Shown here piece by piece: positions 40,956 to 64,000 of a stretch of 64,000 nt of DNA. The notes beneath the pieces are model-generated. The model did not search any database. It was not told the DNA's origin and saw only the letters and a program-made list of their open reading frames with translations. Within the stretch, counting starts at the first letter, position 1, and every line of letters starts with the position of its first letter. Source of the DNA: Verrucomicrobiales bacterium (GTDB taxonomy: Bacteria; Verrucomicrobiota; Verrucomicrobiia; Verrucomicrobiales; V1-33); assembly GCA_038210825.1 (NCBI GenBank), contig JBBQWG010000001.1, positions 151,630 through 215,629 of the forward strand. The letters are read 5' to 3'. The translations under genes were made by a program, and so were the position numbers.

Positions 40956-42740
40956 ATGAACTGGCGAGATCCCCTCCTGTATCTGGTGTGTCTGGTGGCT
41001 GGCGTGGCTGGTTATGCCGCACGCATTGGTTTAACGGGGCCGGAAGATGCTGTGCTCCTTGCTCCGGTAAGCCGCAGCTTGACCGGACCACCGACGGAGA
41101 CTGCTTCCCCGACATCAACCGCTGGAAACGGCCCCTACCTCAGCCGCTTGGCCAAGGCGCAAGCGCAGGACATGCCGGATCTAGTTGCCGATTACGACTC
41201 TATTGCCGATCCTTGGAAGCGGGAGGATGCCCTGAAAGGACTCATCGCGCGCTGGGTAGAACTCAATCCTCGGGAGGCATTGGAGTTTTTCATAACACTA
41301 AATTCCCACAAAGGAGTCGAAACCGTCCTGGTGCAATGGGCCCTGCTGGAACCTGCTGCGGTGCTGGCCGTCTTGCAGGAATCCAAGGCCGCCCTGCCTC
41401 GCGTGGAGTCCATTCTCCAGAGATTGAGCATTATTGATGGAAAAGCAGCGGTGCGGTTTCTCCTTGCTTTGCCGGAGGGAAAAGCGGTCCCCGGACTGCT
41501 CTCGTCCAGTAATTGGCGGGACATGGTGACGCGCATGGCCCATGCGGATTTTGAGGGAATGCTGAGAACGCTGGACCGGTTTGCGGAGCTTGGGCGATAT
41601 GAACGCCATCAGGTGATCGCGGCCATCGCAGCTGGCCGGGCGCTCAGCGATCCCGACGGCGCTTTGGAGTGGGCCCGCGGGCTGGAGAAAGGAAGCAGGC
41701 AAGCTGTCGGACAAGTTCTGCAAACCATCAGCTCATGGGATCCGGCCCGAGCATCGCGGGAATTTTTGCGGACGCCAGAGCTGATGGCCGCCGTCATCAA
41801 AGGGAGTTCCGAAGGTTCCTTGGTGGAAAGGATTGCGGCTCAGTTAGGAAGGAAGGATCCAGCTGCGGCACTTCGCTGGATACGGGAGGCAGTGGGGAAA
41901 GAAGAAAACGTCCGGCAGTTGGCTCAGAGTGCGGCCGCACAGATTCTCCAGCAGGCCTTGAGGGATCCTTCGCGGATCGGGGAAGTGTTCACGGTGGTCC
42001 AAGGCGATCTGGACCCGGGGAACTTCATGTTTCCCAGATGGGTCGCTGAAGGAAAACTGAGTGCCGTGCTGGAGGCCGTGAGTGCTTTGCCCGTTGGGGA
42101 GACCCGGGACCGCTTGTTGGCAAATTTGGCGGCCCAAGCAGCAGCATCGAATCCGATGGCCTCCCTGAAATGGCTGGAGGCCATCGCCGATCCCAAAGCG
42201 AGGGAGGCCTATGGGGCTCAGCTTTCCCTCCAGTCTGGCCCTGAGACCTCTGTGCTGGCACGTCAATTTTACGAAGCTCTCCCATCGGACCTGAAAATCA
42301 GTGCCGCTGCCCGCTTGGCAGAGACCCAAGCGAGGGACCATGGTCCTGCAGCCGCAGGTTGGGCGCAATCCTTGCCGGACGGTGCTGCCATGGAAAAGGC
42401 CTTGGCTTCCGCTTTGTCCGTTTGGACCTCCAAGGACTCCGAAGCCGCTTCCATCTGGGTGGATGAGATGCCGCCGGGGCCCGCGCGCGATGCGGCCGCA
42501 ACCGGCTTGGTGCAGGGTATTTTAAACCGGGAGCCTTCCTCAGCCTTTATTTGGGCGATGAGTATTAATGATCCCGCGCAACAGGAAACCAGTCTTTTGC
42601 GGACCCTCGTCCGGTGGCGGCAGCACGATGCCGCCGCTGCCAGCGCCGCAGTGGCGGCTGCCGCTTTACCCGAAGCCCGGCGAAGCGGGTTGCTGCAATT
42701 TATTCACTCCAACGAACGATGGAACGAGCCCGCAAACTGA
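40956..42740 (+). CDS. Hypothetical membrane-anchored alpha-helical repeat protein
   Basis: 594 aa. An N-terminal TM (LLYLVCLVAGVAGYAA) is followed by repeated DPxxALxW-type helical units. I recognise no catalytic motif. Confidence 0.6.
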   Translation: MNWRDPLLYLVCLVAGVAGYAARIGLTGPEDAVLLAPVSRSLTGPPTETASPTSTAGNGPYLSRLAKAQAQDMPDLVADYDSIADPWKREDALKGLIARWVELNPREALEFFITLNSHKGVETVLVQWALLEPAAVLAVLQESKAALPRVESILQRLSIIDGKAAVRFLLALPEGKAVPGLLSSSNWRDMVTRMAHADFEGMLRTLDRFAELGRYERHQVIAAIAAGRALSDPDGALEWARGLEKGSRQAVGQVLQTISSWDPARASREFLRTPELMAAVIKGSSEGSLVERIAAQLGRKDPAAALRWIREAVGKEENVRQLAQSAAAQILQQALRDPSRIGEVFTVVQGDLDPGNFMFPRWVAEGKLSAVLEAVSALPVGETRDRLLANLAAQAAASNPMASLKWLEAIADPKAREAYGAQLSLQSGPETSVLARQFYEALPSDLKISAAARLAETQARDHGPAAAGWAQSLPDGAAMEKALASALSVWTSKDSEAASIWVDEMPPGPARDAAATGLVQGILNREPSSAFIWAMSINDPAQQETSLLRTLVRWRQHDAAAASAAVAAAALPEARRSGLLQFIHSNERWNEPAN

Positions 42741-43732
42741 AGCTCCGCACCTACTCCCTGGTCCTCGCGGCGTCAGGGCTCTGCTTTTTGGCAGGCTGGA
42801 ACATTGCGGGCCGGCGGAGTCTGGTGAGCGATCAAACCCGCCCAACAGAAAATACGGAACCCAACGGAAACGCGACCGTTCCCCATCAGATAGGAGAAAC
42901 CGTGCAGAGCAGCTCCTTGTCGGGTGGCGGGACCTTCGCCGCTTTGCTGGCCATGGAAGCAGAGGCAGCGGGCCTGAAGCCGGAAGACTGGGCGCGCTTA
43001 TGGCGGAAACGGATGCGGACCGGAGAGCATAACGGCTTGGCGCGCCATTGGGTGAAGGCGGATCCGCTTGGTGCTTTGAAGGCAGCCCTGGCGGCAGCGG
43101 ACGAAGCTTCTTTGAGCGATCAGGAGAGTTACGACTTCCAGTATCTGGGAGGGGCCGCGATCGATGAACTGTTCTCCCGCAGTCTGCCGGAGGCACTGCG
43201 GGGCATGAGTGAGTGGCGGGAGACCTATGGCGCATATCCCCGTCTGGACTGCCTCCATCTTCTTGTGACCGGAGATGCGGCACAGAAAGCCGCGCTGGCG
43301 GATTTTCTACGCAAGGAAGGACCCGAAAAGATCCACGCAAGAATAACCGGCGATTCCCTGAACGTGCTGGAGGCCCTGGACCAGCCAGGAATGCCCTCAC
43401 GGCCTGACATTCAGGGAGACATTGTGTGGGAAACCATTCAAACCCGGCCGGTGGAGACAGTAGATTGGATGTTGAAGCAGGCCCAGCCGATCAGTCCGAA
43501 ACTGATGGAGAGAGCTTTAAACGGCTTCCGCGCCGTGGTGGGATCCTCAAGGGAAACGACGGAAGCGATGGAGCGCCTCCTTGAAATCGCGCCACCGGAT
43601 ATGGTGGACGAATACGCAGAGGATATTGTGTCCCGGAAAGCTTCATACGATCCGGAAGGCGCGCGCTTATGGGCCGAAGAGCACGTGCCGGAAGCGAAAC
43701 TTAAAGAGGTGCTCCAGGAGCTTGCGAAATGA
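42719..43732 (+). CDS. Hypothetical membrane-anchored helical repeat protein (related in style to the upstream gene)
   Basis: The start MERARKLKLRTYSLVLAASGLCFLAGW (TM anchor) lies within ORF 42614..43732. It overlaps the upstream stop by about 22 nt. Confidence 0.55.
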   Translation: MERARKLKLRTYSLVLAASGLCFLAGWNIAGRRSLVSDQTRPTENTEPNGNATVPHQIGETVQSSSLSGGGTFAALLAMEAEAAGLKPEDWARLWRKRMRTGEHNGLARHWVKADPLGALKAALAAADEASLSDQESYDFQYLGGAAIDELFSRSLPEALRGMSEWRETYGAYPRLDCLHLLVTGDAAQKAALADFLRKEGPEKIHARITGDSLNVLEALDQPGMPSRPDIQGDIVWETIQTRPVETVDWMLKQAQPISPKLMERALNGFRAVVGSSRETTEAMERLLEIAPPDMVDEYAEDIVSRKASYDPEGARLWAEEHVPEAKLKEVLQELAK

Positions 43733-43785
43733 GATCCGCGGGCATGCCTCCCCTTGTTTGATTTCAGAATCCAGCAATTAAGCTT

Positions 43786-44337
43786 GTGAAACGAAATATC
43801 AGTCTAATTGGCAATTTTGTCCGGCGTATTTACCACTGGGCTTTTTGCTATCAAAAGGAGCGGGTGATCGAACAATACAAATGCTGCTCTGTTCTTGGTT
43901 TCAATATTTTTGCGCCGGATGAATACAGGCATGAGATAAGGGCGACACTGATAATGCTCCAGGAACTGAAGCCGGAGTTATTGAGCTATATCTCAACGCA
44001 CGTTAAAAGCATTTATGTATCCGATATTGGGGTTGGTATCGGATATATTCAGGAATCAATTGTCATTTTCCATGATGCAAAATGCGAAATCGGCACCTTG
44101 ATGGAAGCTGAATATTTCTGGGAATACCTTGTGCCATGGTTTATATATACTGCTATCGTTAGTGATTTATATAAGCAGGGATTCACCAGTATTTTATTTC
44201 GTTTTTCAAAACTGAAGCGACAGGCATTTAAGGAGAGCAGACGACTGGCCTCCGAGCTGGCTCTTGAATATCGGAATCGGGAAACAATCCTGGAGATCCC
44301 GTGGGAGAAAATTCAAGATTCCGTGTGCATCAAATGA
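43786..44337 (+). CDS. Orphan hypothetical protein in an AT-rich islet
   Basis: A 183-aa ORF with a GTG start. Composition is very different from its neighbours: a hand count of line 44041-44100 gives 23/60 G+C. It is rich in I/K/Y/F/E, and I recognise no motif. Confidence 0.5.
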   Translation: MKRNISLIGNFVRRIYHWAFCYQKERVIEQYKCCSVLGFNIFAPDEYRHEIRATLIMLQELKPELLSYISTHVKSIYVSDIGVGIGYIQESIVIFHDAKCEIGTLMEAEYFWEYLVPWFIYTAIVSDLYKQGFTSILFRFSKLKRQAFKESRRLASELALEYRNRETILEIPWEKIQDSVCIK

Positions 44338-44451
44338 CTGGGGAATTTGCTTGGGCCCGTGTGGTTTCGTTGCAAAGCATAAGATTGGGCACGGGGAAAA
44401 GCAATTTGCCGGGGAGCAATCTTCCAGATACGATCCCGGGCCTGATCAACC

Positions 44452-45054
44452 ATGAGTGACATCCCCCACAATGAAGACGAAAGAAGCGGCAGAACAGATG
44501 ACGGTGTCACCACGACGATTGCCTCGGAGCGGTTGGAATTGATTCCCCTGACTCCGGCTTTCCTTGAGGCCATGCTGGGACAGGACCTCCCGAAGGCCGG
44601 GCGAGTGGTGCGACTGGCGCTGCCGGAAGGTTTGCTGGATTCCCTGGACGTCATGGAGTTGCGCCTTGAACAGCTGCGGGCGGATGCCAGGTTTCAGCCA
44701 TGGTCGCTTCGGGCGATAGCACTCCGGGATCGCGGAGTCATGATCGGCCACATTGGATTCCACACCGCCCCCGGTGCCGACTATCTAATCCCTTATGCTC
44801 CGGGAGGGGTGGAATTTGGTTTCACCGTGTATCCGCCCTGGCTCCGTCAGGGTTACGCCCGCGAGGCTTCGCTGGCGCTCATGAACTGGGCTCACCGGAT
44901 CCATGGCGTGACGCAATTTGTGTTGAGCATCCGGCCGGACAATACGGCCTCGCAAGCACTCGCCGCAAGCCTTGGTTTTGTGAGGATCGGTTCCCCTATG
45001 GATGAAGTGGACGGCCTTGAAGATATTCTGGAGCGCAGACTCGGCGGGGTGTGA
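44452..45054 (+). CDS. GNAT-family N-acetyltransferase (RimJ/RimL-like)
   Basis: SERLELIPLTPAFLEAML is followed by the acetyl-CoA motif region WLRQGYAREASLALMNWAH and RPDNTASQALAASLGFVRIG. Confidence 0.85.
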   Translation: MSDIPHNEDERSGRTDDGVTTTIASERLELIPLTPAFLEAMLGQDLPKAGRVVRLALPEGLLDSLDVMELRLEQLRADARFQPWSLRAIALRDRGVMIGHIGFHTAPGADYLIPYAPGGVEFGFTVYPPWLRQGYAREASLALMNWAHRIHGVTQFVLSIRPDNTASQALAASLGFVRIGSPMDEVDGLEDILERRLGGV

Positions 45055-51882: not shown

Positions 51883-54156
51883 TTGATGCATCCCACGTCG
51901 TCCTTCCCTCAAACCCGCCACCTTGTCCTCCTCGGAGGGGGTCACAGCCATGCGCTGGCGCTTCGCCACTTGGCCATGAATCCCCTGCGGGGGATCCGTG
52001 TCACTCTGATCTCCGAGGGATCCGCTGCTGCTTATTCAGGGATGCTGCCCGGGCACATCGCGGGGATGTATTCATGGGAGGAAATGCACATCGATCTGCG
52101 CCGGCTTTGTGCCTCCGCAGGGGCGGCGTTTATCCACGCCGAAGTAGTGGGACTGAATGCGGCCGCGCGGAGTATCACTCTGGCCGGACGCCCCCCTCTA
52201 ACTTATGATGTCATATCCATCAATTTGGGCGGAACGCCACAAACGGCCAATGTTCCGGGCGCCGCTGAGTTTGCTGTCCCGGCCAAACCAGTGCCCCGCC
52301 TGCTGGAGGGTTGGAGCCGCATCCAGAAGGCCGCCAGGCAGCGGGCCGTTCCACCGCAGCGACCCCTGCGGGTGGTGGTGGTCGGTGGGGGTGCCGGCGG
52401 GGTGGAACTAGCCCTTTGCATGCAACATCAGCTCGGCGGACTGGCGGAAATAACGCTTATTCATCGCGGAACATCCATCATGGACACGCATCCAACCCGA
52501 GTGCGTTCGCTCCTCTCTGCAGTCCTTGAGGAAAGGCACATTCAAATCCTGACATCGGCAGAAGTGACGGAAGTCAGAGCGGACCGCGTCAGGCTCGCCG
52601 GAACAGCCCTCCCTGAAGTGCCGGCTGACTTTGTTCTCTGGGTGACTTCCTCCACCCCTGCCCCATGGCTGGCGGCCAGCGGATTGAAAACCGCCAGCGA
52701 TGGATCCGTCTCTGTTTCTGATTGTCTACAGTCCACCAGCCATCCGGAGGTGTTTGCGGCAGGGGATGTGGCCTCCCTTCCGGAGCGGCTGCCACGTTCC
52801 GGAGTTTACGCGGTGCGGATGGCCCGGCCATTGGCCAACAATCTCCGGAGGTATCTTTCCGGCACCGCGCTTCGACCATACCGTCCCCAACGATCCTTCC
52901 TCAGCCTTATCGGCACGGCGGATGGCAAGGCGGTGGCCAGCCGGCGCCCTTGGGCCTTGCGTTCGGGGTGGCTCTGGCGGCTCAAGGACGGAATCGACCG
53001 CCGCTTCATGGGGAAATTTGAACACCTCCCCGTGATGAAAGTTAAGCGGCAGCCTGCCACGCAGACCGCGCAGCAGCCCGCGTCGCCGTCCGGGCCCCCG
53101 GCCATGCGGTGCCGGGGGTGCGCCGCCAAAATCGGGTTCCCGACGTTGAGCGCCACCCTCGACCGGTTGCGGGAGGATTTTCCTGACGTAGTGCGGAGCG
53201 CGGACCACCGGGACATTCAAATCGGCCTCGATTCGCCGGATGATGCGGCCGTTTTCTCCACTCCACCCGGCCATCGGCTGGTGCAGACGGTGGACTATTT
53301 GCCGGCGCTCATGGACGATCCGTTTGTCTTTGGACAGATCGCCGCCCTGCATGGCTTCAGCGATGTCTTCGCCATGGGGGCGGAGCCCCATAGCTGCCTT
53401 GCTGCGGCGCTGGTGCCATTCGGTGGTGCAGCCCTGACAGAGGAATTGCTCTATCAACTGCTGGCGGGGGTGCTTACCGTGCTGCGCCAAAGTGAAACCC
53501 GCCTGATAGGGGGGCATTGTGCCGAGGGCGATCCCATGGCCCTGACTCTTGTGTGCAATGGCCTCGTGTCCCCTGACAGCTCCCTGATGACCAAGGGTGG
53601 CCTGCGCGCCGGCGACCTGCTTATTCTCACGAAACCCATCGGGACCGGCATCCTTTATGCCGCCGCGATGCGGCATCTGGCCCGTGCGCGGTGGATCGAT
53701 GCCGCCGAGCGCTCCATGTTGCGGTCGAATTTGCCGGCCAGCCGGATTCTCCTCGCGTATGGGGCCACCGGATGCACGGACGTAACCGGGTTCGGACTGG
53801 CCGGCCATTTGCAGGAGATGCTGCGCGCCTCGGGGTGCAGCGCCCTGGTGCGGCCCGACACCTTGCCACTCATCGATGGAGCTTTGGACGCCTCCGGTCT
53901 TGGCGTGCGCAGTTCGCTTTACGAGTCCAATGCCGCTGCGGTCGCCCTGACTCCGGAAGCCGCGCGATTCGCGGAACATCCGAATTTTCCCCTGCTGTTC
54001 GATCCTCAGACTTCGGGTGGACTGCTCGCCGGCGTGGCCGAAACCAAGGCGGAAAGCTGTCTCGCGGCCTTGCAGGCCGCCGGGTATCCGGAAGCCGCCA
54101 TCATCGGGCACATCCTGACAGGTCCTCCCGAAGCACCACTCCTCACGTTTTCCTAG
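51883..54156 (+). CDS. selD: Bifunctional FAD-dependent pyridine nucleotide-disulfide oxidoreductase (NADH dehydrogenase-like) / selenide, water dikinase
   Basis: 757 aa. The N-terminal half has Rossmann motifs (LVLLGGGHSH, VVVVGGGAGGVELA). The C-terminal half is SelD: RCRGCAAKIG (Cys-type active site), DDAAV, GQIAALHGFSDVFAMGAEP, LILTKPIGTG, DVTGFGLAGH, PQTSGGLL. Confidence 0.88.
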   Translation: MMHPTSSFPQTRHLVLLGGGHSHALALRHLAMNPLRGIRVTLISEGSAAAYSGMLPGHIAGMYSWEEMHIDLRRLCASAGAAFIHAEVVGLNAAARSITLAGRPPLTYDVISINLGGTPQTANVPGAAEFAVPAKPVPRLLEGWSRIQKAARQRAVPPQRPLRVVVVGGGAGGVELALCMQHQLGGLAEITLIHRGTSIMDTHPTRVRSLLSAVLEERHIQILTSAEVTEVRADRVRLAGTALPEVPADFVLWVTSSTPAPWLAASGLKTASDGSVSVSDCLQSTSHPEVFAAGDVASLPERLPRSGVYAVRMARPLANNLRRYLSGTALRPYRPQRSFLSLIGTADGKAVASRRPWALRSGWLWRLKDGIDRRFMGKFEHLPVMKVKRQPATQTAQQPASPSGPPAMRCRGCAAKIGFPTLSATLDRLREDFPDVVRSADHRDIQIGLDSPDDAAVFSTPPGHRLVQTVDYLPALMDDPFVFGQIAALHGFSDVFAMGAEPHSCLAAALVPFGGAALTEELLYQLLAGVLTVLRQSETRLIGGHCAEGDPMALTLVCNGLVSPDSSLMTKGGLRAGDLLILTKPIGTGILYAAAMRHLARARWIDAAERSMLRSNLPASRILLAYGATGCTDVTGFGLAGHLQEMLRASGCSALVRPDTLPLIDGALDASGLGVRSSLYESNAAAVALTPEAARFAEHPNFPLLFDPQTSGGLLAGVAETKAESCLAALQAAGYPEAAIIGHILTGPPEAPLLTFS

Positions 54157-56071
54157 CTGACCCCAGGGTGCGGACATCGCCGCTCCGCCGCGTAAACCCC
54201 TCCCGGTCACAGCGTTCGAGAAACGGGATCATGACCCGCCGGGAACTGCCCAGACAGGTTCTGAGATCACTAACTTTGGCAGGACCCTGCTGTTGGATAA
54301 AGGCCGCGAGGGTCTCCTTCATTTTGGCGTAGGCCGACGCAGAGAGGACTACCTCACTATCAAGCTCGATGATCCGGCCTGCTTCCCGGAAGAAACGCAG
54401 GGCCTGCTGGGAGGGCAAATCCGGAGCCAATTCGCTGCGGGAGGGAGGGTCAAATGGTCTGAGGGCCAAGGCCGCCAGCAGCCGGCCTCCAGCTGCCCGG
54501 AGCGGAGGGGGGAGCGCCGCCCGGTGAGACTGGCGCTGGATAGCGTGCTTCACTTTTCCAAACCCGTTCGCGCAAAGGTCCGCGACGAGCGATTCGAAAA
54601 CCCTGGGAACCTTCACCTCACTTCCCAGCGCACTCTCCAACCGGCCCAGATCGAGTCCCGGCAGGTCAGGATGGTTGCGGTGTTCCAGATCAATCAGAGC
54701 GGCAGCGGCGGTGAACAGATTTCTCCACCACCCTGCCTCCGCCAAAAAATCACCATGCCCCACTAACTCCCCCTGCGCCAGGCATTCACCCACGGCGTCC
54801 TCCACCTCACGGATGCTGAATCCCGACTTTGCCAGCAACGTCCCGCGCGGCACCACCCGATGCCGGGCAAGCTGAGTCCTGACAAAGACCCCGGCGTCCA
54901 TGGGAGCGCGGGCCCGGGCGGCCAGCAGGAGTTGCTGCGCTTCGGTGCGGAAACCCGGAGCACTGGCTTCCGGATCCAGCACCAAGGCACCCGCAAGGGT
55001 GTGGCGTGCCGAAGCATCGCGCAGAACACAACGATCCCCGGCAAAGACCAGCATGGGGGAGTCCATCCGCACCTGCGCCACCACAGAAGCACCAGGCAGG
55101 AGCACCCCGGAGTCCTTCAGATAGACCCTCGCCTCCGAGCTGCCGCTGCCATGATGCAGGCGCAGCCGTTCCCCGTGCCGCAGCGGTGGCGCATCTGCCG
55201 GCAGGCGGGCCAAACGGGTGAGCAACACATCCACCATCCGCCTGGGCTCCCCGGCATCCGTCCGGGTGATGACCTGCCCGCGGGCCAAACCGCCATCGCC
55301 CACCCGGTGCTGCACGGAGGCCTCCGGAAGATTCAGCGCCGCACGTTGCCCAGAGCTGATTTCGGCCACCTCATGGTGGTGGTTTTGAATCCGGCGCACC
55401 CGCAGAGGGGTATCGCATGGACGGGCCATGACCGTGTCACCAACGAGGAATTTTCCCCCGCTCAAGGTGCCGGTCACCACCGTTCCGAGGCCCCGCAGGG
55501 AAAAGGCCCGATCCACTGCGAGGCGTGGCTTGCCAATGTCCCGCCGCGGCGGAAGCTTTGACAGTTCCTGGGTCAGGCAGGACCGCAACTGGTCGAGGCC
55601 TAACCCTGCCACACAGGAAGTGGGCACGATAGGAGCATCCGCATAGTTGCTCTCCTGAAGTTGCTGGCGGAGCGCTTTGCCGGCAGCCTCAGCGTCTGCG
55701 AGGTCGCATTTGGTCAGCGCTACCACCGCCCGCGGCACTCCAAGGTAGGTCAGGATGTGGAGGTGCTCCTCGGTCTGCGGCATCCAGCCGTCATCCGCCG
55801 CCACCACCAGCAATGCCAGATCGATCGATCCCACTCCGGCTACCATGTTCTTGACAAAATCCTCGTGCCCGGGGACGTCGATCACGCCGATGGAGAATTC
55901 AGAGCCATCCGCCGGCAGGGTCAGCTGCGCGAACCCCAGATCGATGGTGATGCCCCGGGCTTTTTCCTGCGGCAGGCGGCTCGGATCGGTGCCGGTCAGC
56001 GCTTTGACCAAGGCGCTCTTTCCGTGGTCCACATGGCCAGCGGTGGCAACAATAAAGGGCGTGGCGGTCAC
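54143..56071 (-). CDS. selB: Selenocysteine-specific translation elongation factor
   Basis: 642 aa. GTPase motifs are present (ATAGHVDHGKSALVKALTG, DVPGHEDF, TKCD). A long C-terminal winged-helix extension is typical of bacterial SelB. Confidence 0.92.
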   Translation of the reverse strand: MTATPFIVATAGHVDHGKSALVKALTGTDPSRLPQEKARGITIDLGFAQLTLPADGSEFSIGVIDVPGHEDFVKNMVAGVGSIDLALLVVAADDGWMPQTEEHLHILTYLGVPRAVVALTKCDLADAEAAGKALRQQLQESNYADAPIVPTSCVAGLGLDQLRSCLTQELSKLPPRRDIGKPRLAVDRAFSLRGLGTVVTGTLSGGKFLVGDTVMARPCDTPLRVRRIQNHHHEVAEISSGQRAALNLPEASVQHRVGDGGLARGQVITRTDAGEPRRMVDVLLTRLARLPADAPPLRHGERLRLHHGSGSSEARVYLKDSGVLLPGASVVAQVRMDSPMLVFAGDRCVLRDASARHTLAGALVLDPEASAPGFRTEAQQLLLAARARAPMDAGVFVRTQLARHRVVPRGTLLAKSGFSIREVEDAVGECLAQGELVGHGDFLAEAGWWRNLFTAAAALIDLEHRNHPDLPGLDLGRLESALGSEVKVPRVFESLVADLCANGFGKVKHAIQRQSHRAALPPPLRAAGGRLLAALALRPFDPPSRSELAPDLPSQQALRFFREAGRIIELDSEVVLSASAYAKMKETLAAFIQQQGPAKVSDLRTCLGSSRRVMIPFLERCDREGFTRRSGDVRTLGSARKT

Positions 56072-56085
56072 AGGCGGGGAGGCGG

Positions 56086-57468
56086 TTAGGTTGATTCGTT
56101 AGTCGCAGCAGGGGCCTCCGCCACGGCCATGATGATCGAATCCACCAGGGCCGTATCCTGCCGGGGGAAGACTGTCCGGAGATCGATTTTGAAATGCTTC
56201 TTCGTGATGTTTCCCACCACCGGCACCGGGCCAAGGCGAAGCCGTTGGCTGAATGCCTCCAAGCTGAGGCCGGCGGGGACGAGGTCCACAGTGATGGACG
56301 GTAACGAACTGCGGGGCAGGGTGCCTCCTCCCACCTGCCCCGTTCCGTGGCCCACCGTCGCCCGCAACGGCTGGTCCACAAGTGCTGCGACAATCCTTTC
56401 GGCACGGGCCACCAGCGACTCCCGGCTTGCTTGCAGCATCGAGATCACCGGCAGCGTGCCGGTATCACCGGCAAGGCATTGGTCCACCGTGGATTGCAGG
56501 GCGGTGAGCACCAGCTTCCCACACCGCAGCGCCCGGTAGAGGGGTTCCCGCTTAAGCGCTGATACCGCGTGTTGCCGCCCGGCGATGATCCCTGCCTGCG
56601 GACCTCCAAGCAGTTTATCGCCGCTGAAACACACCAGATCCGCTCCACTCCCTAGCACCTCCTCAACGGTGGGCTCATGTTCCAGTCCGGCGATTTTTTC
56701 CGTGGCCAGAATCGCGCCGCTTCCAAGATCTTCCACGAAGGGAACGCGTTTGCTCCTGGCCAACCGGGCGATTTCCCCCGTCGTGGGTGACTGCACGAAA
56801 CCGCCCATGAAAAAATTGCTGCGATGCACTTTTAAAACCAGCCCGGTCTCCGGTCCAAGAGCCCGTGCGTAGTCTTCGAGGGTCGTCTGATTGGTCGTCC
56901 CCACTTCGCGCAGGCGGGCTCCGCTCGCTTCGAGGATTTCCGGAACGCGGAACCCCCCGCCGATTTGCACCAATTCCCCGCGCGAAATCACCACTTCCGG
57001 TCTTTTCGCCGTGAAATGCCTAACCATCAGCATCAGTGCGGCGGCACCATTGTTCACGACCATGGCAGCTTCCCCACCACAAAGCAGCGCCAGGTTGTGC
57101 TCCAGATAACCCGCCCGGCTGCCGCGCGTTCCCCCCGTGAGATCGATTTCCAGATTGCAATACTCCCCGGCCACCGCGTGGACGGAATGGTTTGCTGCCG
57201 GTCCAAGTGGCGAGCGTCCCAGATTGGTATGGATCAGGATGCCGGTGCCATTGATGACCGGGCGGATCTTCTGCGCAAGGAGTTGGGAAATTGCTATTTG
57301 CACCCGCCGGGCCACAGCTTCGGGCTCCGGAATCGCCGCCTCTTTGCGCAGCGCCGCCAGTTCCCGCCGCACGATCGAGACCACGGCCGGTCGCGGCAGA
57401 TCAACGGTGCCGATCGCCCGCAGGACAGCCTGAACGGCCGGGATGGATCGTAACCGCGCTGGATTCAC
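56086..57468 (-). CDS. selA: L-seryl-tRNA(Sec) selenium transferase
   Basis: SelA signatures include LRSIPAVQAVLR, VINGTGILIHTNLGRSPL and the PLP-lysine region FSGDKLLGGPQAGII. A GTG start at 57466-57468 (MNPARLRSIP) is proposed because the upstream part of ORF 56086..57642 is occupied by tRNA-Sec. Confidence 0.88.
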   Translation of the reverse strand: MNPARLRSIPAVQAVLRAIGTVDLPRPAVVSIVRRELAALRKEAAIPEPEAVARRVQIAISQLLAQKIRPVINGTGILIHTNLGRSPLGPAANHSVHAVAGEYCNLEIDLTGGTRGSRAGYLEHNLALLCGGEAAMVVNNGAAALMLMVRHFTAKRPEVVISRGELVQIGGGFRVPEILEASGARLREVGTTNQTTLEDYARALGPETGLVLKVHRSNFFMGGFVQSPTTGEIARLARSKRVPFVEDLGSGAILATEKIAGLEHEPTVEEVLGSGADLVCFSGDKLLGGPQAGIIAGRQHAVSALKREPLYRALRCGKLVLTALQSTVDQCLAGDTGTLPVISMLQASRESLVARAERIVAALVDQPLRATVGHGTGQVGGGTLPRSSLPSITVDLVPAGLSLEAFSQRLRLGPVPVVGNITKKHFKIDLRTVFPRQDTALVDSIIMAVAEAPAATNEST

Positions 57469-57502
57469 TGGCTCATCAGGAAGTGGGGGGACAGAAAAAG
57501 GG

Positions 57503-57598
57503 GGCGGAGAGGACAGGAATCGAACCTGCCCCGGCCCGCAGAACGGACCGGCGTCGGTTTTGAAGACCGCAGGGACCACCAGGCACCCTTCACTCTCC
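57503..57598 (-). tRNA. selC: tRNA-Sec (anticodon UCA); ends approximate to +/-2 nt
   Basis: The reverse complement reads GGAGAGTGAAGGGTGCCTGGTGGTCCCTGCGGTCTTCAAAACCGACGCCGGTCCGTTCTGCGGGCCGGGGCAGGTTCGATTCCTGTCCTCTCCGCC. The anticodon loop is CUUCAAA (plus-strand tga at 57561-57563). A long 8-bp variable arm pairs CCGGTCCG with CGGGCCGG. The 4-nt D-loop is UGGU. The T arm GCAGGTTCGATTCCTGT is nearly identical to E. coli selC as I recall it. The discriminator is G. The gene lies directly upstream of selA-selB. Confidence 0.85.
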
Positions 57599-57830
57599 GG
57601 GGTGCTCCCCGTTGCCATTTCTACCGGCAAGCGCAATGGCAAGAGTGGGACACCGGAGATCGAGGTAGTTGGTTTGCGGGCAGGAAAAATTTGTTAAGTT
57701 GCGGTGAAATACTGCCAAGTGGAAATTGTTCGGGGCGCGGGATGTAGCCAGACCAGACGTGGACGGGGCTGACCCTGCAGAGCGGCATGGGGATGCCCGG
57801 TCCTTCCACCAAAAACCTGCCCATCGCCAT

Positions 57831-58799
57831 CTAAAAATCTCCCGCCGGGAAAGCGGTCGCCAAATCCGCTAGCACGGTCTGAGGGAAAATCGGGTTTCCT
57901 CCCCGGTCCAGCCAGGGACTGCAGGCGGCGACACAGCCCTGCCCCGGCCACACCCCGAACATGACGCCGCTGACTCCCGATTTCGCTGGCAATCCAGTCC
58001 TCCCGAACCATGCGGCCGACGCTTCATAAAGACCGCACCGGCTCATGGCCCGCAGCACCCGGGCGCGGTCTGCCATCCCGGTCATCGCCAAAGCGTGGCC
58101 CAACCACGCCACATCCTGGATGTTGCCTGCCAAACAACACATCCGGAAGTAGATCTCATACGCGGCCCTTGCGGATATCGCCCGCTGGCTTCCTGCCAAC
58201 TCCTCCGCCAATGCCCAATTGGAGGGATCCCTGCCGTTCTGCATCACCCCGGCGAAACATTCGCCGTCCAATTTTAAAACTGCTTCCGGGGCCAATCCTG
58301 CCAGCCACGCCACGAAAAGCCTCTCCTGCTCAAGCGGTCCATCCCCCGGCATCTTGGAAGCCAACAGCATCGCCCCGCTGTTCAGCATCGCGTTCCGCGG
58401 CTTCCCGCCATCCGCCTGCAGTTGTTCCAGCGACCAATACGGCAGGCCGCTTGGCTCGTCATCCACCCATCCTGCCACCGTTTCCGCCCCATAACATTCC
58501 AATGCCCGCAGCAGCAAAAATGGCTTCACGGCACTCATCAGGGTAAACCGGTCTTCCCCGTCCCCGGCCACCCTGACATTTCCACCGGCCACGCAACAAA
58601 CTGCTTCCCCCTCAGCTCTTCCCGGTGCCTCCATGCAAAGCACCTCCTGCGGATCCCGCCGGACCAGCCCCGCGCGGCCTTGTTCCCGCATTCCGGCAAG
58701 GTAGGCATTGGTGATGGTTTCGATCCCGGACACGAGTGACTTTCTATCGGCTTTTGCACATGACAAGGAAGCGCGCTGCTTCGGAAAAACGACGTTCAC
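57831..58799 (-). CDS. glsA: Glutaminase-family protein (serine-dependent, beta-lactamase fold), divergent N-terminus
   Basis: Motifs: FTLMSAVKPFLLLRAL (S-x-x-K), EPSGLPYWSLEQL, PRNAMLNSGAML, GLPAKSGVSGVM. The GTG start overlaps the stop of the upstream 1379-aa gene (GTGA). Confidence 0.8.
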   Translation of the reverse strand: MNVVFPKQRASLSCAKADRKSLVSGIETITNAYLAGMREQGRAGLVRRDPQEVLCMEAPGRAEGEAVCCVAGGNVRVAGDGEDRFTLMSAVKPFLLLRALECYGAETVAGWVDDEPSGLPYWSLEQLQADGGKPRNAMLNSGAMLLASKMPGDGPLEQERLFVAWLAGLAPEAVLKLDGECFAGVMQNGRDPSNWALAEELAGSQRAISARAAYEIYFRMCCLAGNIQDVAWLGHALAMTGMADRARVLRAMSRCGLYEASAAWFGRTGLPAKSGVSGVMFGVWPGQGCVAACSPWLDRGGNPIFPQTVLADLATAFPAGDF

Positions 58800-61700
58800 C
58801 AGAAATCATCGTCCTGATCAAACGCGGCAGACTCGGATTTGAGCTGCCGCTTCATCATCGCCCTGCATTCCCTTAACAATTCACCATAAAAGGTCTTCAA
58901 TACTGGCTGAAACTCATTTTCCTGCAGAAGTTTTTCCACCCTGGAAATGATGTGGCATTCCTGACCATCGCCCGGCATCGGCTCCCCGATCTCTGTTAGA
59001 CGGGTATTTAACGATGATCCCACCCAACGGCTGGCACTGAACCTAAGGCTTTGTTGCGCCGCCGGCAGAAGGGATGGCAGATGTTCGGCGATGTGATTCA
59101 AAAGTTGGCCCAATTGTTGGGGATAGCTCAAAACCAAGGTTGGAGAATCACCGGTGGCAACACTTTCAAACAAGGCCAAGTCGTCGTCACTGCGCAATAA
59201 CGTAATCCAGTCGCCGATCAGTGGACCATACTTGGGACCGGCATCGTCAAGCATCCAGCGCGCCATCTGTTGCAGGTTCAGGAGATGGCCGTCCCGATGG
59301 CAAATATTGGCTCCTGGGTCGGTCTGATGGACTTTTTCCAATTCCTGCAGGATCTCGTCCCGAAGAGTAGTGAACTCGACTTGGAAGGTCCCAAACTGCG
59401 CAAACCGACTTAATGTCACTCTCAACCTTCCTTCCGGGAGAGGCTGATAGTTTCTCCGCCTGTCTTGGGGATTTTCGCTCAAAAGCCGGGCATAGTTTAT
59501 TCGTTGACGGTAAAATCCATAGACTTCCGCCGGGTATCGTTCCGCGATCTTTCCAAAATGATGCCTCCCGTTGATCTGTGGCAAATCGCTGATCTCCAAC
59601 AGCGAGGCCAAAGTTCTTTCGATGAGATCCGGAGGTATTTGGCTTACATCTTGCCACAGGATTCGGGCAGCAAGTGCAAGGATGGCCTCGACCTCCGATT
59701 CCCCGATGGATGACTTTATGGCGTGCTTTAGAATGTCCACACAAAACCCCCCATTCCCCTCGGGAAGGTAAGCAACATTATGGACGATGGATTGTCTTAA
59801 TTCCGCCGTTCCCTCGCTCACCATTACAAGGATAAATTGCCGCCCCTCCACGGGCAGTCTGTTCCAACGCTGCCACCAGACCATCAACCGGCCTGCTTCA
59901 TTTTGTAATATTGGACTAGATGAACGGGCCGCCCTCATCACCAGATCCACCCGGGGGGCCGCAGAAGTAGGACAAAGCCCGTCCATCAGGCTCCCGAAAG
60001 CGTGTGCGGTTTCCGGTACGCCGGACTTCAGTATTTCATCGGCGAGTGATTCCGCCAAATCGGGGAATTCCTTGGCTAGGGGAGTCAAGACCGTTCCTAG
60101 CCCGGGATGGTAAGCCAAGTTGGCAGCCCGTTTGACAAAAGCTTCCAGAAAATGGTGAAGAGTCGCCCCGGATGAATGCGTTTCGGCTAATTCTTCTGCC
60201 ACACGAACACAGAGCAATCCCCACACCTGCTGTTTTTCCTCGTAGTTGCAGTCTTCTTTCCCCAATGGCCGTTCCCGTGAGTAGGCTGGGGTGATTTCCT
60301 TGCCGCCGCCTGAGCAGGTCGCACGCACCAGCCGCAGTTCAAAGCCGTCCGGCAGTGTTTCAAACACGTCCCATGCTTTGAAGCGAAATTCTGATGGAGG
60401 TTCATAGCTAAGATGCCAGTCCAGGGCCTCCCAAACTCGCCAATGAACCAAGCCGGAGTTGGAATTGCCAGAAATTTCGCCGAGCAGATCCAAAGCTTCA
60501 ATTCGCTGAGGCAACCACTTTCCATGCAGCGGATCATCATCCTGGATTCCGAGGATATTGCACCGGTCTATGGCGATATCCATTACCGCAATACAGTTCA
60601 AAAGAATACCCTCATGACCACTTAGGGAAATCTTCCTGATCAGAGCTAAGATCCTTTTTCGCAAGGTAGTCATGGAATTTACCGCAAGTTCATGATGGGA
60701 CCATTTCAGTGTATTTTCGCCGTCCCATTTTTCTTCCACGACGCTATGGTTCAGAAAGACTTCAATGAATGCTACAAACCACCAGACTGGTTTGTTCAAC
60801 TGCTCCAAAATCTCCGGCTTGGCGAAATGCGCCTCCATCCAGGACAAGGCATCCTCAGATACACTCCTACGTTTACGGAATTCCAATTTGGCTATCTGCA
60901 CAATCGCGGCGAGCGCATGGTCCTGATTATGGTTGGCGGTCTGCACTGGTTGGTCGCAACCCATTACCCACAAGATATCAAAACAGCGAATTCTAAGCCC
61001 GTCATGATGCAAGGCGATCTGTTTTAGAAGGGGCGGAATCTTCTGAAGACATTCGGAAAATGTTGCGGAGGCAGGTCCGAACATCCCATACATCACTTCC
61101 TCATTTGCTGCACCAGGCGCGTCCTGGGATCGAATCAATGCGACTATTTCCAAGGTATGCTCCGGCAGATAAATTCCGAATTTTCCCCATGAATGGATCA
61201 TACTGCTTCGCCGATGGAAGCTTGCCCGTTTGTAGATCTCAGTCCATTTGGAAATCAAAGGAGCAACGACCGACTGATGATTCCCGCCCGCCTCACAACG
61301 TGCCCGCCATTCAGCCTCAGCCAAGTTCGGCAGACAGCGGGAAAGCGCTTCATCGTGGAGTTCCGTTGGAAGTGATTGGATGAAGTTTTCCACAAAGCCT
61401 GTCGAGCGCTGCTTATCCCCGTAAACGGCCCGATAGAGGACGTAATCGGAAAGCAAGTCGGGTGAAATACGGTAACCTTCACGATTTTGCCGCAATAGCC
61501 CTGCCCGCTCCAAACCATCAATCCATCTGGAGACATCATGTGGTTTGGTTTCGGCTCCCGCCCATTTTACCAAGACCTCAAACCAAGGGCCATCACGCGG
61601 CATGGGAGCCAACAGGGATACGGACTCAAGCAACCGATCCAACACATTGGGAGGGGCAATCAGTTCCAGTCCCGCGATACTTTTCCCAATGAGGCGCTGG

Positions 61701-62935
61701 AAAACTTCGTGCTCAAACTCCTGATGGGATTCCAGGTGCGCTTTTGTGAGGAGCTGCTTTTTGACCATTTCACAGGCCACTACCGCAATCAGCAGACAGT
61801 CGCGTGAACTACGGGCGACTTGCTCCGCCATTCCATCGTAATCCGTTCCAAGTAAACGCTTTACGACTTTGACCGTTTCCACAGGGTCCAGTCGGCGCAG
61901 CGGGCGCCTTTCTTCGATCATCAAGGCCCCCACCCCGGCAGCCACGGCGGCCTCCCGCAGGATAGGGATTCCCTGCGGTCGGGTGGACAGGATGACTTTG
62001 GCTTTGGGAGAGCGGAGGATGAGCTTAAGAAGAGGTTCCACCTGCTCCCGATGAGCGTCATCAATCAGGATCACCGGCTCGCCTTCCATGGCATCCCGGT
62101 CTTTTGGACTAAGCGGTCCGCCTTGGTTTTCATAGAAGCGCAAACTCCACCGGCGGCGCTCCGCAGGACTCAGGGAATCAGCCAAGGCTTTCAGGAGGCG
62201 ACTCTTGCCACAACCTCCTGCCCCCGGCAAAATTAACAGGCGCTTTTCCCTGTTTCCGAGAAAGCCACGAAGCGCAGCCAGTTCGTCAACTCTTCCTACT
62301 ATTTCAGCTTGGTGATGATGCAGAGGTTCGCCCGTCATCTGGCGCACAAAAAAAGCTCCCGAGGCCAGCAATGGCCCCTCTCCGGGAATTCCCAGAACCG
62401 CTTCCGCCCAGTGCGGACCGAAGAAGGTGTTCAGCATCCGGGCCGCCTGATCGCGGTTAGGTAGCATCCGCACCGCCGAGGTGATGTCTTCCCGGCTCCA
62501 CATTTGCCACCTGCCATGCAAGAACGCCTCATCGCGGGCCTTGCGTCCCAGTTCGCAGGTCACGAGAAGAAAATAAAACTTCGCTTCGGGAAACTCAGCC
62601 TCCGCTTTGAGAATGGCTTCTTTGGTTTGGGTGTCGGACCAGGTTTTGCGGTGTTTGCACTGGAATGCCCAAATTTCGAGTCTTGCGGCTTCACCCAAGC
62701 CTGTCACTTCGACTTCAGCCCGGATGTCGATTCCATTTTGTTTATCCCCCGAAGTTTCATAGCGTTGTGCCGATACAATTCGCCCTGAAAGCGTTCGGCC
62801 CTCCCTTGTGACTTCCAAAACTGGTCCAAGCCGAAGGAATTCGGTGAAAAATCCCTCAAAATCCCCCCACTTAAATGCCGGGTCATGGAAGGGGATATTT
62901 TGATTTTGCGGTGAAACTGGTAGTTTCCTTGGCAT
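58796..62935 (-). CDS. Mrr-like restriction-endonuclease domain + STAND/P-loop NTPase + long helical-repeat C-terminus (Avs-like candidate antiviral STAND protein)
   Basis: 1379 aa. The N-terminal nuclease motif is GIDIRAEVEV...LEIWAFQCKHRK, with QCK at aa 92-94. Walker A is LILPGAGGCGKSRLL (aa 234-248, nt about 62201-62224). Walker B is PVILIDDAH (aa 287-295). About 1000 aa of alpha-helical repeats follow. G+C is clearly lower than in flanking genes; sample lines hand-counted give 26/60 and 31/60. Confidence 0.8.
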   Translation of the reverse strand: MPRKLPVSPQNQNIPFHDPAFKWGDFEGFFTEFLRLGPVLEVTREGRTLSGRIVSAQRYETSGDKQNGIDIRAEVEVTGLGEAARLEIWAFQCKHRKTWSDTQTKEAILKAEAEFPEAKFYFLLVTCELGRKARDEAFLHGRWQMWSREDITSAVRMLPNRDQAARMLNTFFGPHWAEAVLGIPGEGPLLASGAFFVRQMTGEPLHHHQAEIVGRVDELAALRGFLGNREKRLLILPGAGGCGKSRLLKALADSLSPAERRRWSLRFYENQGGPLSPKDRDAMEGEPVILIDDAHREQVEPLLKLILRSPKAKVILSTRPQGIPILREAAVAAGVGALMIEERRPLRRLDPVETVKVVKRLLGTDYDGMAEQVARSSRDCLLIAVVACEMVKKQLLTKAHLESHQEFEHEVFQRLIGKSIAGLELIAPPNVLDRLLESVSLLAPMPRDGPWFEVLVKWAGAETKPHDVSRWIDGLERAGLLRQNREGYRISPDLLSDYVLYRAVYGDKQRSTGFVENFIQSLPTELHDEALSRCLPNLAEAEWRARCEAGGNHQSVVAPLISKWTEIYKRASFHRRSSMIHSWGKFGIYLPEHTLEIVALIRSQDAPGAANEEVMYGMFGPASATFSECLQKIPPLLKQIALHHDGLRIRCFDILWVMGCDQPVQTANHNQDHALAAIVQIAKLEFRKRRSVSEDALSWMEAHFAKPEILEQLNKPVWWFVAFIEVFLNHSVVEEKWDGENTLKWSHHELAVNSMTTLRKRILALIRKISLSGHEGILLNCIAVMDIAIDRCNILGIQDDDPLHGKWLPQRIEALDLLGEISGNSNSGLVHWRVWEALDWHLSYEPPSEFRFKAWDVFETLPDGFELRLVRATCSGGGKEITPAYSRERPLGKEDCNYEEKQQVWGLLCVRVAEELAETHSSGATLHHFLEAFVKRAANLAYHPGLGTVLTPLAKEFPDLAESLADEILKSGVPETAHAFGSLMDGLCPTSAAPRVDLVMRAARSSSPILQNEAGRLMVWWQRWNRLPVEGRQFILVMVSEGTAELRQSIVHNVAYLPEGNGGFCVDILKHAIKSSIGESEVEAILALAARILWQDVSQIPPDLIERTLASLLEISDLPQINGRHHFGKIAERYPAEVYGFYRQRINYARLLSENPQDRRRNYQPLPEGRLRVTLSRFAQFGTFQVEFTTLRDEILQELEKVHQTDPGANICHRDGHLLNLQQMARWMLDDAGPKYGPLIGDWITLLRSDDDLALFESVATGDSPTLVLSYPQQLGQLLNHIAEHLPSLLPAAQQSLRFSASRWVGSSLNTRLTEIGEPMPGDGQECHIISRVEKLLQENEFQPVLKTFYGELLRECRAMMKRQLKSESAAFDQDDDFW

Positions 62936-62976
62936 TTGACTTGAAATTTGATACCACAGGGCAGAAATTTCAAGTC

Positions 62977-64000
62977 ATGAGTTTCTTAATTGTTCAACGC
63001 TCCCGTCTCAGGGATGAGATTGATCTCTCGTTGCGCGAATGGCCTGTGACTCTGGTGCTGGGTCCCCGGCAGTGCGGAAAATCGCACTTGGCCCGGCAAC
63101 TGGGGGCTCCGGCTGGCCAGTTTTTCGATTTGGAGGATATGGTGGACGAAGCCCGCCTCCGCCTGAATCCCCAATCCGTGCTGGCAGAAATGCGTGGTTT
63201 AGTGGTGATCGACGAAGCCCAGCGAATGCCGGAACTGATGCCGGTGCTTCGGGTGTTGGCAGACCGGGCAGGCACTCCGGCACGGTTCGTCCTCACCGGC
63301 AGCGTGGCACCACCCTTGCGCCGAACGGCAGGCGAGTCGCTGGCAGGACGAATTAACACCATTGATATGGCGGGCTTCACGCTGGACGAGACCGGGCCAG
63401 AGGAAGTCAGCCAGCTCTGGTTGAGAGGTGGATTGCCGCCAGCATTTCTATCGGAAACGGATAGTATGTCTCTTCGGTGGCGCAGGCAATATCTGCGGCA
63501 TGTGTTGGAGGGTGATCTGCCGCAGTTGGTGGACAGCAAGCTCGACGGATTGCAATTGCAGCGCATGGCCCGGGGACTGGCCCACTACAATGGCCAGGTC
63601 TGGAATGAATCCGAGATAGCGCAAATGGTGGGAACCACTCCACGAACCGTGAGCCGTTACATGGATATGTTTTGGCGGTTGTTCCACATCCGCCTGCTGC
63701 CTCCGTTCCATGTCAATATAGCCAAACGCTTGCGGAAAGCACCTAAACTGCTTTTCCGCGACAGTGGACTGGCGCACGCGCTGCTCGGGATCGACACTTT
63801 GGCTACCCTCCAGTCCCATCCCAAACTTGGAGCATCATGGGAAGCCTTTGTGGTGGATCACCTGATTCGTCTCCTGGGTGTTCCGGAGGAACACTGTTCC
63901 CATTACGGAGTTCACTCCGGTGCGGAAATGGACCTTGTCATTGAAACGCCCATGGGCTTGCTTGCCTTCGAAATCAAATATGGCCCTCCCAGCCTGACCG
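62977..64000 (+). CDS. AAA-family ATPase with DUF4143 (COG1373-like), 3'-truncated by the window edge; absent from the ORF track
   Basis: My own translation from the ATG at 62977 is open to nt 64000: MSFLIVQRSRLRDEIDLSLREWPVTLVLGPRQCGKSHLARQLG (Walker A), LVVIDEAQRMPEL (Walker B), then LRWRRQYLRHVLEGDLPQL...KLLFRDSGLAHALLGI, typical of the DUF4143 part. Confidence 0.85.
   Translation, partial: MSFLIVQRSRLRDEIDLSLREWPVTLVLGPRQCGKSHLARQLGAPAGQFFDLEDMVDEARLRLNPQSVLAEMRGLVVIDEAQRMPELMPVLRVLADRAGTPARFVLTGSVAPPLRRTAGESLAGRINTIDMAGFTLDETGPEEVSQLWLRGGLPPAFLSETDSMSLRWRRQYLRHVLEGDLPQLVDSKLDGLQLQRMARGLAHYNGQVWNESEIAQMVGTTPRTVSRYMDMFWRLFHIRLLPPFHVNIAKRLRKAPKLLFRDSGLAHALLGIDTLATLQSHPKLGASWEAFVVDHLIRLLGVPEEHCSHYGVHSGAEMDLVIETPMGLLAFEIKYGPPSLT

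Follow-up and report, generated by a model that had tools for sequence, protein, structure and literature searches.

What does a 1379-codon gene of lowered guanine-plus-cytosine (G+C) content, placed next to housekeeping genes, contribute to a member of the Verrucomicrobiales? The gene in question lies in a stretch of 64,000 nucleotides from a Verrucomicrobiales bacterium (GenBank assembly GCA_038210825.1, contig JBBQWG010000001.1, positions 151,630 to 215,629 of the forward strand). This whole stretch is called the window here, and coordinates refer to it unless another locus is named. Our analysis suggests that the gene encodes a single-chain antiviral pattern-recognition receptor of the STAND type, similar to the Avs proteins. 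We put the probability of this reading at roughly 0.68, judging from sequence conservation, structural models and the analogy with characterized receptors. A word-indexed search provided about 30 relatives, from which two alignments, A1 with 16 and A2 with 30 sequences, were derived. The parts of the gene, which was taken from the list of open reading frames (ORFs), are the following.

58796..62935, minus strand: complete gene for a 1379-aa protein with Mrr nuclease, nSTAND5-type NTPase and alpha-solenoid (ORF list, full-length homologues at E = 0, alignment A1)
62366..62935, minus strand: PD-(D/E)xK nuclease domain of Mrr type, residues ~1-190 (conservation, model, Mrr_cat matches in relatives)
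62855-62857 (E27), 62714-62734 (D70 in GIDIRAE) and 62654-62662 (Q92-C93-K94), minus strand: putative catalytic residues of the nuclease (alignments A1 and A2)
61406..62365, minus strand: STAND NTPase module with nucleotide-binding, helical and winged-helix domains, residues ~191-510 (invariant columns, Pfam, Foldseek)
62201-62224, minus strand: Walker A motif GAGGCGKS (invariant columns)
62051-62071, minus strand: Walker B motif ILIDDAH (invariant columns)
58796..61405, minus strand: C-terminal alpha-solenoid, the presumed ligand sensor and most divergent part, residues ~511-1379 (model, Foldseek, identity)

The reading frame starts with an ATG at 62935 and is covered to 100% at E = 0 by full-length homologues of 43-48% identity. 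These homologues and the invariance of the motifs GIDIRAE (residues 68-74), LEIWAFQCK (86-94), GAGGCGKS (238-245) and ILIDDAH (289-295) in the alignment exclude a chance frame. The coordinates and all four motifs agree with a preliminary description of this locus. The database copy of the protein, P0001, comprises 1303 aa, is 100% identical across 94% of the ORF and corresponds to a start at V77, which would entail the loss of the nuclease residues E27 and D70. Since the N-terminus is conserved in all close homologues, our data support the ATG at 62935. By dropping codons 1-77 (window 62705-62935), the V77 start of P0001 could mask the effector domain from annotation pipelines.

E27, D70 and Q92-C93-K94 were invariant in the 16 sequences of A1 and at least 90% conserved in the 30 sequences of A2, and G68, W89 and F91 are further invariant positions of the nuclease region in the 16-sequence alignment. 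The modelled nuclease core, with a predicted local distance difference test (pLDDT) score of about 90, follows the order alpha-beta-beta-beta-beta-alpha-beta. E27 is located in the helix 23-35, D70 at the beginning of the strand 71-78, and Q92-x-K94 in the strand 85-94. The model thus displays the residue pattern E...D...(Q/E)xK on an alpha-beta-beta-beta-alpha-beta core by which PD-(D/E)xK nucleases of the Mrr type are recognized. A scan with the window protein alone gave no match to Mrr_cat (PF04471) at E <= 1; among its relatives, this family was matched by 19 out of 30 and by 10 out of 37 sampled representatives, one of the latter exceeding the gathering cut-off (P0050 with 25.1 bits against 21). 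Residue conservation, model topology and the relatives' Mrr_cat matches therefore agree with the Mrr-type fold proposed in the preliminary description, which had named poorly conserved nuclease residues as an argument against its own proposal. Ahead of the nuclease a near-invariant 'LPF' motif occupies residues 14-16 (A1 columns 1-30), and a conserved acidic tail rich in D and E forms the extreme C-terminus (residues 1370-1379). It is possible that these are autoinhibition or docking elements.

In the NTPase module, G240, G241, G243 and K244, D292, D293, A294, H295 and R296, as well as K313, L316, R319 and P320 were invariant in the 16 sequences, as was an RxxPDLLxD motif at residues 489-497 (R489..P492-D493-L494..D497). 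Most columns invariant in the 16 sequences stayed invariant or at least 90% conserved across the 30, and G240, G241, G243, K244, D292 and D293 were invariant in both alignments. Hence, Walker A, Walker B (DDAHR) and the TRP sensor motif (K313..L316..T-R319-P320) are invariant or nearly so in 16-30 homologues, and the P-loop signature of the STAND superfamily (Walker A GxxGxGK[ST], Walker B hhhhDD) is present. Family-level scans were required because single-sequence scans gave nothing above curated cut-offs: with the window protein alone, Pfam returned AAA_16 at 8.5e-5 and nSTAND_NTPase5 (PF25199) with 19.4 bits (E = 9.6e-4) at a gathering cut-off of 34 bits. When the relatives were scanned singly, nSTAND_NTPase5 was the commonest family match, found in 29 out of 30 and in 33 out of 37 at E <= 1e-3 (best about 1e-9), and AAA_16 was matched by 23 out of 30. 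The name 'nSTAND5' was not found in a literature search. NCBIfam holds no model for the STAND protein or for the partner protein described below, and PDB sequence and profile searches with the STAND protein returned only weak P-loop matches and designed-repeat-protein artefacts.

The structural model of residues 1-560 (pLDDT 86, predicted template modelling score (pTM) 0.76) consists of the nuclease core followed by a Rossmann-like nucleotide-binding domain (NBD), a helical bundle and a winged-helix region. In a Foldseek comparison with the PDB, Avs4 (8dgf) was the best match (1e-10, 552 aligned columns) and Avs3 (8dgc) the second (6e-10). Next were the archaeal ATPase 2qen and EfAvs5 (9jap) in fifth place (2e-7), and Apaf-1 and plant NLR resistosomes were likewise among the significant matches (1z6t and 9h2l at 5e-7, 9cc8 at 1e-6). 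STAND matches outranked Clp/Hsp104 AAA+ proteins, with Cdc6/Orc1 entries (ranks 10 and 16) mixed among the lower STAND matches. As modelled, the order of nucleotide-binding, helical and winged-helix domains and a fold nearer to STAND proteins than to other AAA+ proteins place the module in the STAND superfamily. The preliminary description had assumed a P-loop NTPase of STAND or NLR style and considered that an NTPase outside the STAND families would speak against it; the nSTAND_NTPase5 matches in relatives and the structural matches to Avs4, Avs3, EfAvs5, Apaf-1 and NLRs favour the assumption.

For residues 501-1379 the model (mean pLDDT 85, pTM 0.71) predicts an all-alpha, HEAT-like solenoid except for one beta-hairpin. 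This solenoid matched only generic HEAT/ARM solenoids, such as CRM1, transportins (karyopherins), SF3B1 and CAND1, at E values of about 1e-5 to 1e-4. Structure prediction of the C-terminal part, suggested as a check in the preliminary description, thus yielded a confident alpha-solenoid. The helical nature claimed for this part was retained, and its length had to be corrected from about 1000 to about 870 aa.

The top tier of the family consists of six full-length relatives (43-48% identity) in assemblies of Prosthecobacter and Verrucomicrobiaceae, followed by a second tier with 23-31% identity and an actinobacterial tier with about 20-24% identity and an additional XRE-type helix-turn-helix (HTH) at the N-terminus. 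An exhaustive phmmer search with residues 501-1379 (the C-terminal 879 aa) identified 277 cluster representatives at E <= 1e-3, 152 of them at E <= 1e-10. Nearly all of these are 1280-1400 aa long with the match starting near residue 500, which indicates that the whole architecture recurs in at least 277 clusters. The effector varies: SIR2_2 and NNH1 were found in one each of the 30 relatives, and SIR2_2 and a caspase-like Peptidase_C14 in one each of the 37 sampled representatives. Mean pairwise identity was 0.38 in the nuclease, 0.32 in the NTPase module, 0.24 in the solenoid and 0.21 in the last third of the solenoid. An effector, a STAND NTPase and a large C-terminal sensor in one chain, combined with effector modularity, correspond to the Avs architecture in the broad sense. 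The effector-switch-sensor logic, which the preliminary description had likened to that of Avs proteins, is supported by this domain order and further by the swapping of effectors (SIR2, caspase) and the fastest divergence of the sensor. In a Verrucomicrobiae locus (L022 8001-10984) the frame of the STAND homologue comprises only 716 aa though the match starts at residue 6; this may be a disrupted copy.

Exchange of the sensor is seen in the comparison of L016 with L023, loci that belong to different species representatives. Their partner genes share 98% identity. The STAND proteins share 92-100% over the first ~600 aligned columns and about 28-66% over the remainder. At the DNA level, identity amounts to 91-100% from the partner stop codon through the intergenic region to about STAND codon 630, and to 45-66% beyond codon ~630, both in what remains of the STAND gene and in the outer flanks. 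The shared block corresponds to L016 799-3850 with the breakpoint near L016 3850-3900. The pair L016/L023 is a natural chimera with a recombination breakpoint where the solenoid begins, and the sensor has been exchanged by recombination. Such a pattern would be expected if diversifying pressure acts on the specificity domain of a receptor.

An antiviral function of the STAND gene is inferred from the analogy with Avs3 and Avs4, and the same analogy suggests how the protein may act. At rest it would be an autoinhibited monomer. Binding of a phage-derived ligand by the solenoid, most likely a conserved phage protein, would induce nucleotide-dependent oligomerisation via the NTPase module. The Mrr domains would thereby be united into an active nuclease, which presumably degrades DNA indiscriminately and aborts the infection.

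Among known systems, Avs4 (EcAvs4, 8dgf) has the same order of nuclease, STAND NTPase and large helical sensor in one chain of ~1400-1500 residues. It shares only 14% identity with the window protein, the fold of its portal-binding sensor was not recognized in the solenoid, and the NTPase of our family matches the Pfam family nSTAND_NTPase5. SIR2-bearing members, comparable to the SIR2-STAND protein EfAvs5 (9jap), occur in the window family too. In contrast to the nSTAND_NTPase5 matches found here, Avs5 carries an nSTAND3 NTPase (bioRxiv 10.1101/2025.07.08.663546). The PADLOC models of Avs3 (8dgc) and Avs5 do not match the window protein. Apaf-1 and the plant NLR resistosomes share its STAND core of nucleotide-binding, helical and winged-helix domains but possess other effectors and sensors (12-16% identity). 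A recent survey distinguished 589 STAND clades and 684 structural clusters of sensors and classed 198 of the clades as defence-associated; nSTAND clades, Mrr effectors and helical sensors of >=400 aa are within its scope (Lee et al., Nature 2026, PMC13581612). The families whose trigger has been identified (Avs7, Avs8, Avs10-21) stem from hosts that include Escherichia, Salmonella, Klebsiella, Moraxella, Myxococcus and Halomonas, and the word Verrucomicrobia is absent from the text (PMC13581612). The window family fits the description given in this survey, as far as a comparison by text description goes, and plausibly lies among its clades.

Several observations weigh against a receptor of the Avs kind. 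Scanned alone against Pfam, NCBIfam and PADLOC, the window protein gave no match above a curated cut-off and only sub-threshold P-loop matches. None of the Avs1-5 models of PADLOC-DB v2 matched it at E <= 1, and the PADLOC Avs models produced a single match in the 30 relatives (Avs4, 1.8e-4). The comparison with hidden Markov models (HMMs) of Avs1-5 that the preliminary description had envisaged thus yielded no family assignment, and we use the term 'Avs-like' rather than counting the protein among Avs1-5. The TM-scores of the Foldseek matches were 0.26-0.36, low as is usual in multi-domain comparisons, so that the fold assignment relies on E-values and match ranking. No Avs sensor, 8dgf included, appeared among the top 50 PDB matches of the solenoid model. 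Moreover, the solenoid is HEAT/ARM-like, unlike most sensors of defence-associated STAND proteins, which are TPR-like (Lee et al. 2026, PMC13581612). The immediate neighbours on the window side are housekeeping genes (glutaminase and selenocysteine genes) rather than a defence island, and the partner-bearing loci L017, L019 and L026 show no G+C deficit of the STAND gene. Finally, the support for defence, nuclease activity and trigger is computational throughout.

Composition and genomic context characterize the STAND gene as an acquired element. Its G+C content is 53.0% (56.4% at third codon positions, GC3), with 200-nt windows ranging from 42 to 61%, compared with 64.4% (GC3 72%) in selB, 61.8% in the glutaminase gene and 60.6% in the whole window; the G+C steps are sharp on both sides, near 58800 and 63000. 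The foreign composition noted in the preliminary description was therefore seen as regards the lower G+C, but the figures given there, 43-52% against 75%, are replaced by 53% against 62-64%. In most loci examined the G+C of the STAND gene was below that of its flanks. A pattern scan of species-representative genomes detected 15 loci, all in Verrucomicrobiota and one of them in an Akkermansia muciniphila assembly. Flanking genes vary between the STAND loci and never include the selenocysteine genes of the window. AbiEii adjoins P0007, whereas the neighbours of P0014 are MazE/PIN, YafQ/RelB, IS110 and a helicase. An Mrr-nSTAND5 homologue of Micromonospora zingiberis (P0031 in L025, GCA_004331455.1) resides in a dense island of defence genes and mobile elements. 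It has a 699-aa SIR2_2 protein divergently upstream, MazG, two DDE transposases, a reverse transcriptase of the group-II-intron type, the immunity proteins Imm7 and MafI2, and an M78 peptidase with an HTH partner as neighbours. Phage records contained no relative of the STAND protein, and plasmids only distant relatives of its N-terminal half. The patchy occurrence, unrelated flanks and absence of synteny indicate that the STAND gene is accessory and horizontally mobile. A core gene of the clade, which would have contradicted the preliminary description, was rejected since the homologue loci lack synteny and lie in unrelated neighbourhoods. The stop codon TGA of the STAND gene shares the tetranucleotide GTGA (58796-58799) with GTG, the first possible start codon of the glutaminase ORF, and no terminator-like site is located between them. 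Read-through or coupled expression of the glutaminase gene, which has host composition and for which this GTG is the first candidate start, is possible.

On its other side the STAND gene faces a conserved divergent gene that the preliminary description had missed. This partner starts 41 bp from the STAND start and runs off the window end, with the far boundary of the module located past position 64000.

62977..64000, plus strand: partner gene for an AAA_14 ATPase with DUF4143 (PD-(D/E)xK), 341 of ~399 codons within the window (Pfam, PADLOC)
62936..62976, no strand: divergent, AT-rich intergenic region of 41 bp, filled by an inverted repeat
62937-62949 / 62965-62977: perfect 13-nt inverted repeat, TGACTTGAAATTT / AAATTTCAAGTCA, 15 nt between the arms

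The partner matched AAA_14 at 3.7e-20, DUF4143 at 5.4e-34 and the PADLOC models of PDC-S01 at 1.4e-75 for the window copy (range 1e-75 to 1e-84), and it has invariant Walker A, Walker B and GxExDL...FExK motifs. With this HMM match, both domains and intact Walker A, Walker B and PD-ExK motifs, it qualifies as PDC-S01, whose make-up is likewise an ATPase with PD-(D/E)xK. A PDB search revealed no solved relative. DUF4143/COG1373 is a PD-(D/E)xK family of unknown function (PMC3424549). PDC-S01, identified as a defence candidate by 'guilt by embedding', consists of a single gene and is very common; PDC candidates mostly await experimental validation, and none has been reported for PDC-S01 (PMC12988326). 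The window partner is 80% identical to that of P0005 and 77% to that of P0002. Of about 22 loci, 14 showed divergent pairing at 36-47 bp (the window, L001, L005, L013, L015, L016, L017, L019, L021, L023, L024, L026, L027 and L109). STAND and partner proteins form congruent clades (Pearson r = 0.92, 55 pairs), the partner always being better conserved than the STAND protein (77-83% versus 45-60%, 53-65% versus 35-39%, 76% versus 58%).

The inverted repeat in the window was equalled in 0 out of 300 shuffles. Similar CTTGAAA...TTTCAAG repeats were present in L013, L024 and L016/L023 and weaker ones in L001 and L005; none was detected in the paired loci L015, L017, L019 and L021, nor in front of the STAND genes of L003 and L007, which lack a partner. 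Solo PDC-S01-type genes (L030-L109, e.g. L041, L052, L071 and L073; from many metagenomes) carry an inverted repeat within 50 nt before the ATG. Its arms are 9-15 nt long, with CTTGAAA/TTTCAAG or CATGAAAAT/ATTTTCATG as frequent outer half-sites and with inner arms that vary yet stay complementary. In 26 of 56 solo partner-type loci the best repeat was equalled by at most 2 of 100 shuffles. Since solo genes carry the same kind of palindrome, it belongs to the PDC-S01-type gene. A sigma-70 consensus scan of the divergent intergenic region found no promoter, and we do not claim the palindrome as a promoter pair; terminator-like sites were no commoner in this region than in shuffles. The palindrome may be an operator, a 5' RNA hairpin or a set of overlapping promoter elements. 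Most likely, the STAND gene and its partner share a 36-47-bp control region with a palindrome owned by PDC-S01.

The pairing raises the question of whether the two genes work as one system, either obligate or cooperative, for instance with the winged-helix region of DUF4143 binding the shared palindrome and controlling STAND expression, or with both ATPase-nucleases acting sequentially on phage DNA. The same divergent layout is kept in the 14 loci across 20-60% STAND identity, the clade structure is common to both proteins, and the outer flanks differ, which indicates that the pair moves as a unit; weak HTH matches within the partner point in the same direction. Nevertheless, such a system seems unlikely to us. 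STAND genes occur without the partner in 8-9 loci, including those of the close relatives P0006 and P0007, and the palindrome also precedes solo genes and hence is not specific for the pair. PDC-S01, very common as it is, was defined as a single gene, and partner-type genes of equal divergence (38-47% identity) had a STAND neighbour in only 1 of 47 assessable metagenome loci, the other 46 being solo; the latter count led us to down-weight an obligate system. Most likely, the partner is a second, autonomous ATPase-nuclease defence candidate; it and the STAND gene would form a doublet that is inherited and transferred together, a sub-lineage of PDC-S01 having become stably paired with a STAND gene. 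A bolder variant, which we regard as doubtful, is that the Mrr-nSTAND5 receptor and PDC-S01 constitute a coupled two-nuclease module that uses one 36-47-bp palindromic switch and swaps sensor cassettes just after the NTPase. Autoregulation by the DUF4143 winged helix that also gates the STAND gene is proposed as an example.

Mrr-type domains are the catalytic domains of type IV restriction enzymes. The protein could therefore be an NTP-dependent, modification-dependent restriction enzyme of this Mrr-like type, or a DNA-surveillance nuclease, that senses DNA and uses the solenoid as scaffold or regulator; the annotation of one plasmid-borne relative as 'restriction endonuclease' and the XRE-type HTH of the actinobacterial clade fit this idea. 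We consider it very unlikely because on the same chassis the nuclease is replaced by SIR2 or a caspase-like protease, as expected for a generic death effector but not for a DNA-specificity module. Furthermore, the largest and fastest-diverging part is a solenoid of the protein-interaction type, and the closest structures are the protein-sensing Avs3 and Avs4. A role outside defence, as a MalT/AfsR-like signalling or transcription-regulating ATPase or as a housekeeping gene of the host lineage, would agree with the AAA_16 matches typical of such regulators, the HTH-bearing relatives and the metabolic genes next to the window copy. It appears highly improbable, as the window protein has a conserved nuclease active site instead of a DNA-binding output domain, its homologues are patchy and without synteny, with defence genes and mobile elements as neighbours elsewhere, and its G+C and GC3 differ from those of host genes. 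An Avs-like receptor thus remains our preferred reading.

The remaining features that we annotated in the window comprise a selenocysteine cluster (51883-57642) and a second patch of low G+C.

51883-54156, plus strand: selD fused to an N-terminal pyridine-nucleotide-disulphide oxidoreductase (selenocysteine cluster)
54143-56071, minus strand: selB (selenocysteine cluster)
56086-57642, minus strand: selA, listed ORF (selenocysteine cluster)
57502-57599, minus strand: tRNA-Sec (selenocysteine cluster)
42614-43732 and 43786-44337: two ORFs without Pfam match (low-G+C patch)
44452-45054: GNAT acetyltransferase (low-G+C patch)

As the listed selA ORF overlaps tRNA-Sec, the true selA start probably is located further downstream. 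Integration of the module at tRNA-Sec was considered and found unsupported: the glutaminase gene with host-like G+C lies between module and tRNA, and the module is on the 5' side of the tRNA. The second patch (window 43000-45000) has a G+C of 53-55% and may likewise have been acquired.

In bacteria, antiviral STAND receptors correspond to the NLRs of animals and plants, and each STAND family with a new sensor fold can expose a new phage feature seen by immunity. The family described here has no curated model or solved structure and is found mainly in Verrucomicrobiota and Actinobacteria, two groups in which phage defence has received little attention. Its HEAT-like sensor contrasts with the TPR-like majority of described defence-associated STAND sensors. 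With about 198 defence-associated STAND clades surveyed, one more clade is incremental rather than surprising; more original are three by-products, namely the pairing with PDC-S01, the chimera with its swapped sensor and the palindrome. The natural chimera marks a site where sensors can be exchanged, the stable pairing provides a handle on a very common defence candidate, and the conserved palindrome before PDC-S01-type genes is a candidate operator. If the coupled two-nuclease module should prove true, PDC-S01 would gain its first functional context together with a candidate operator.

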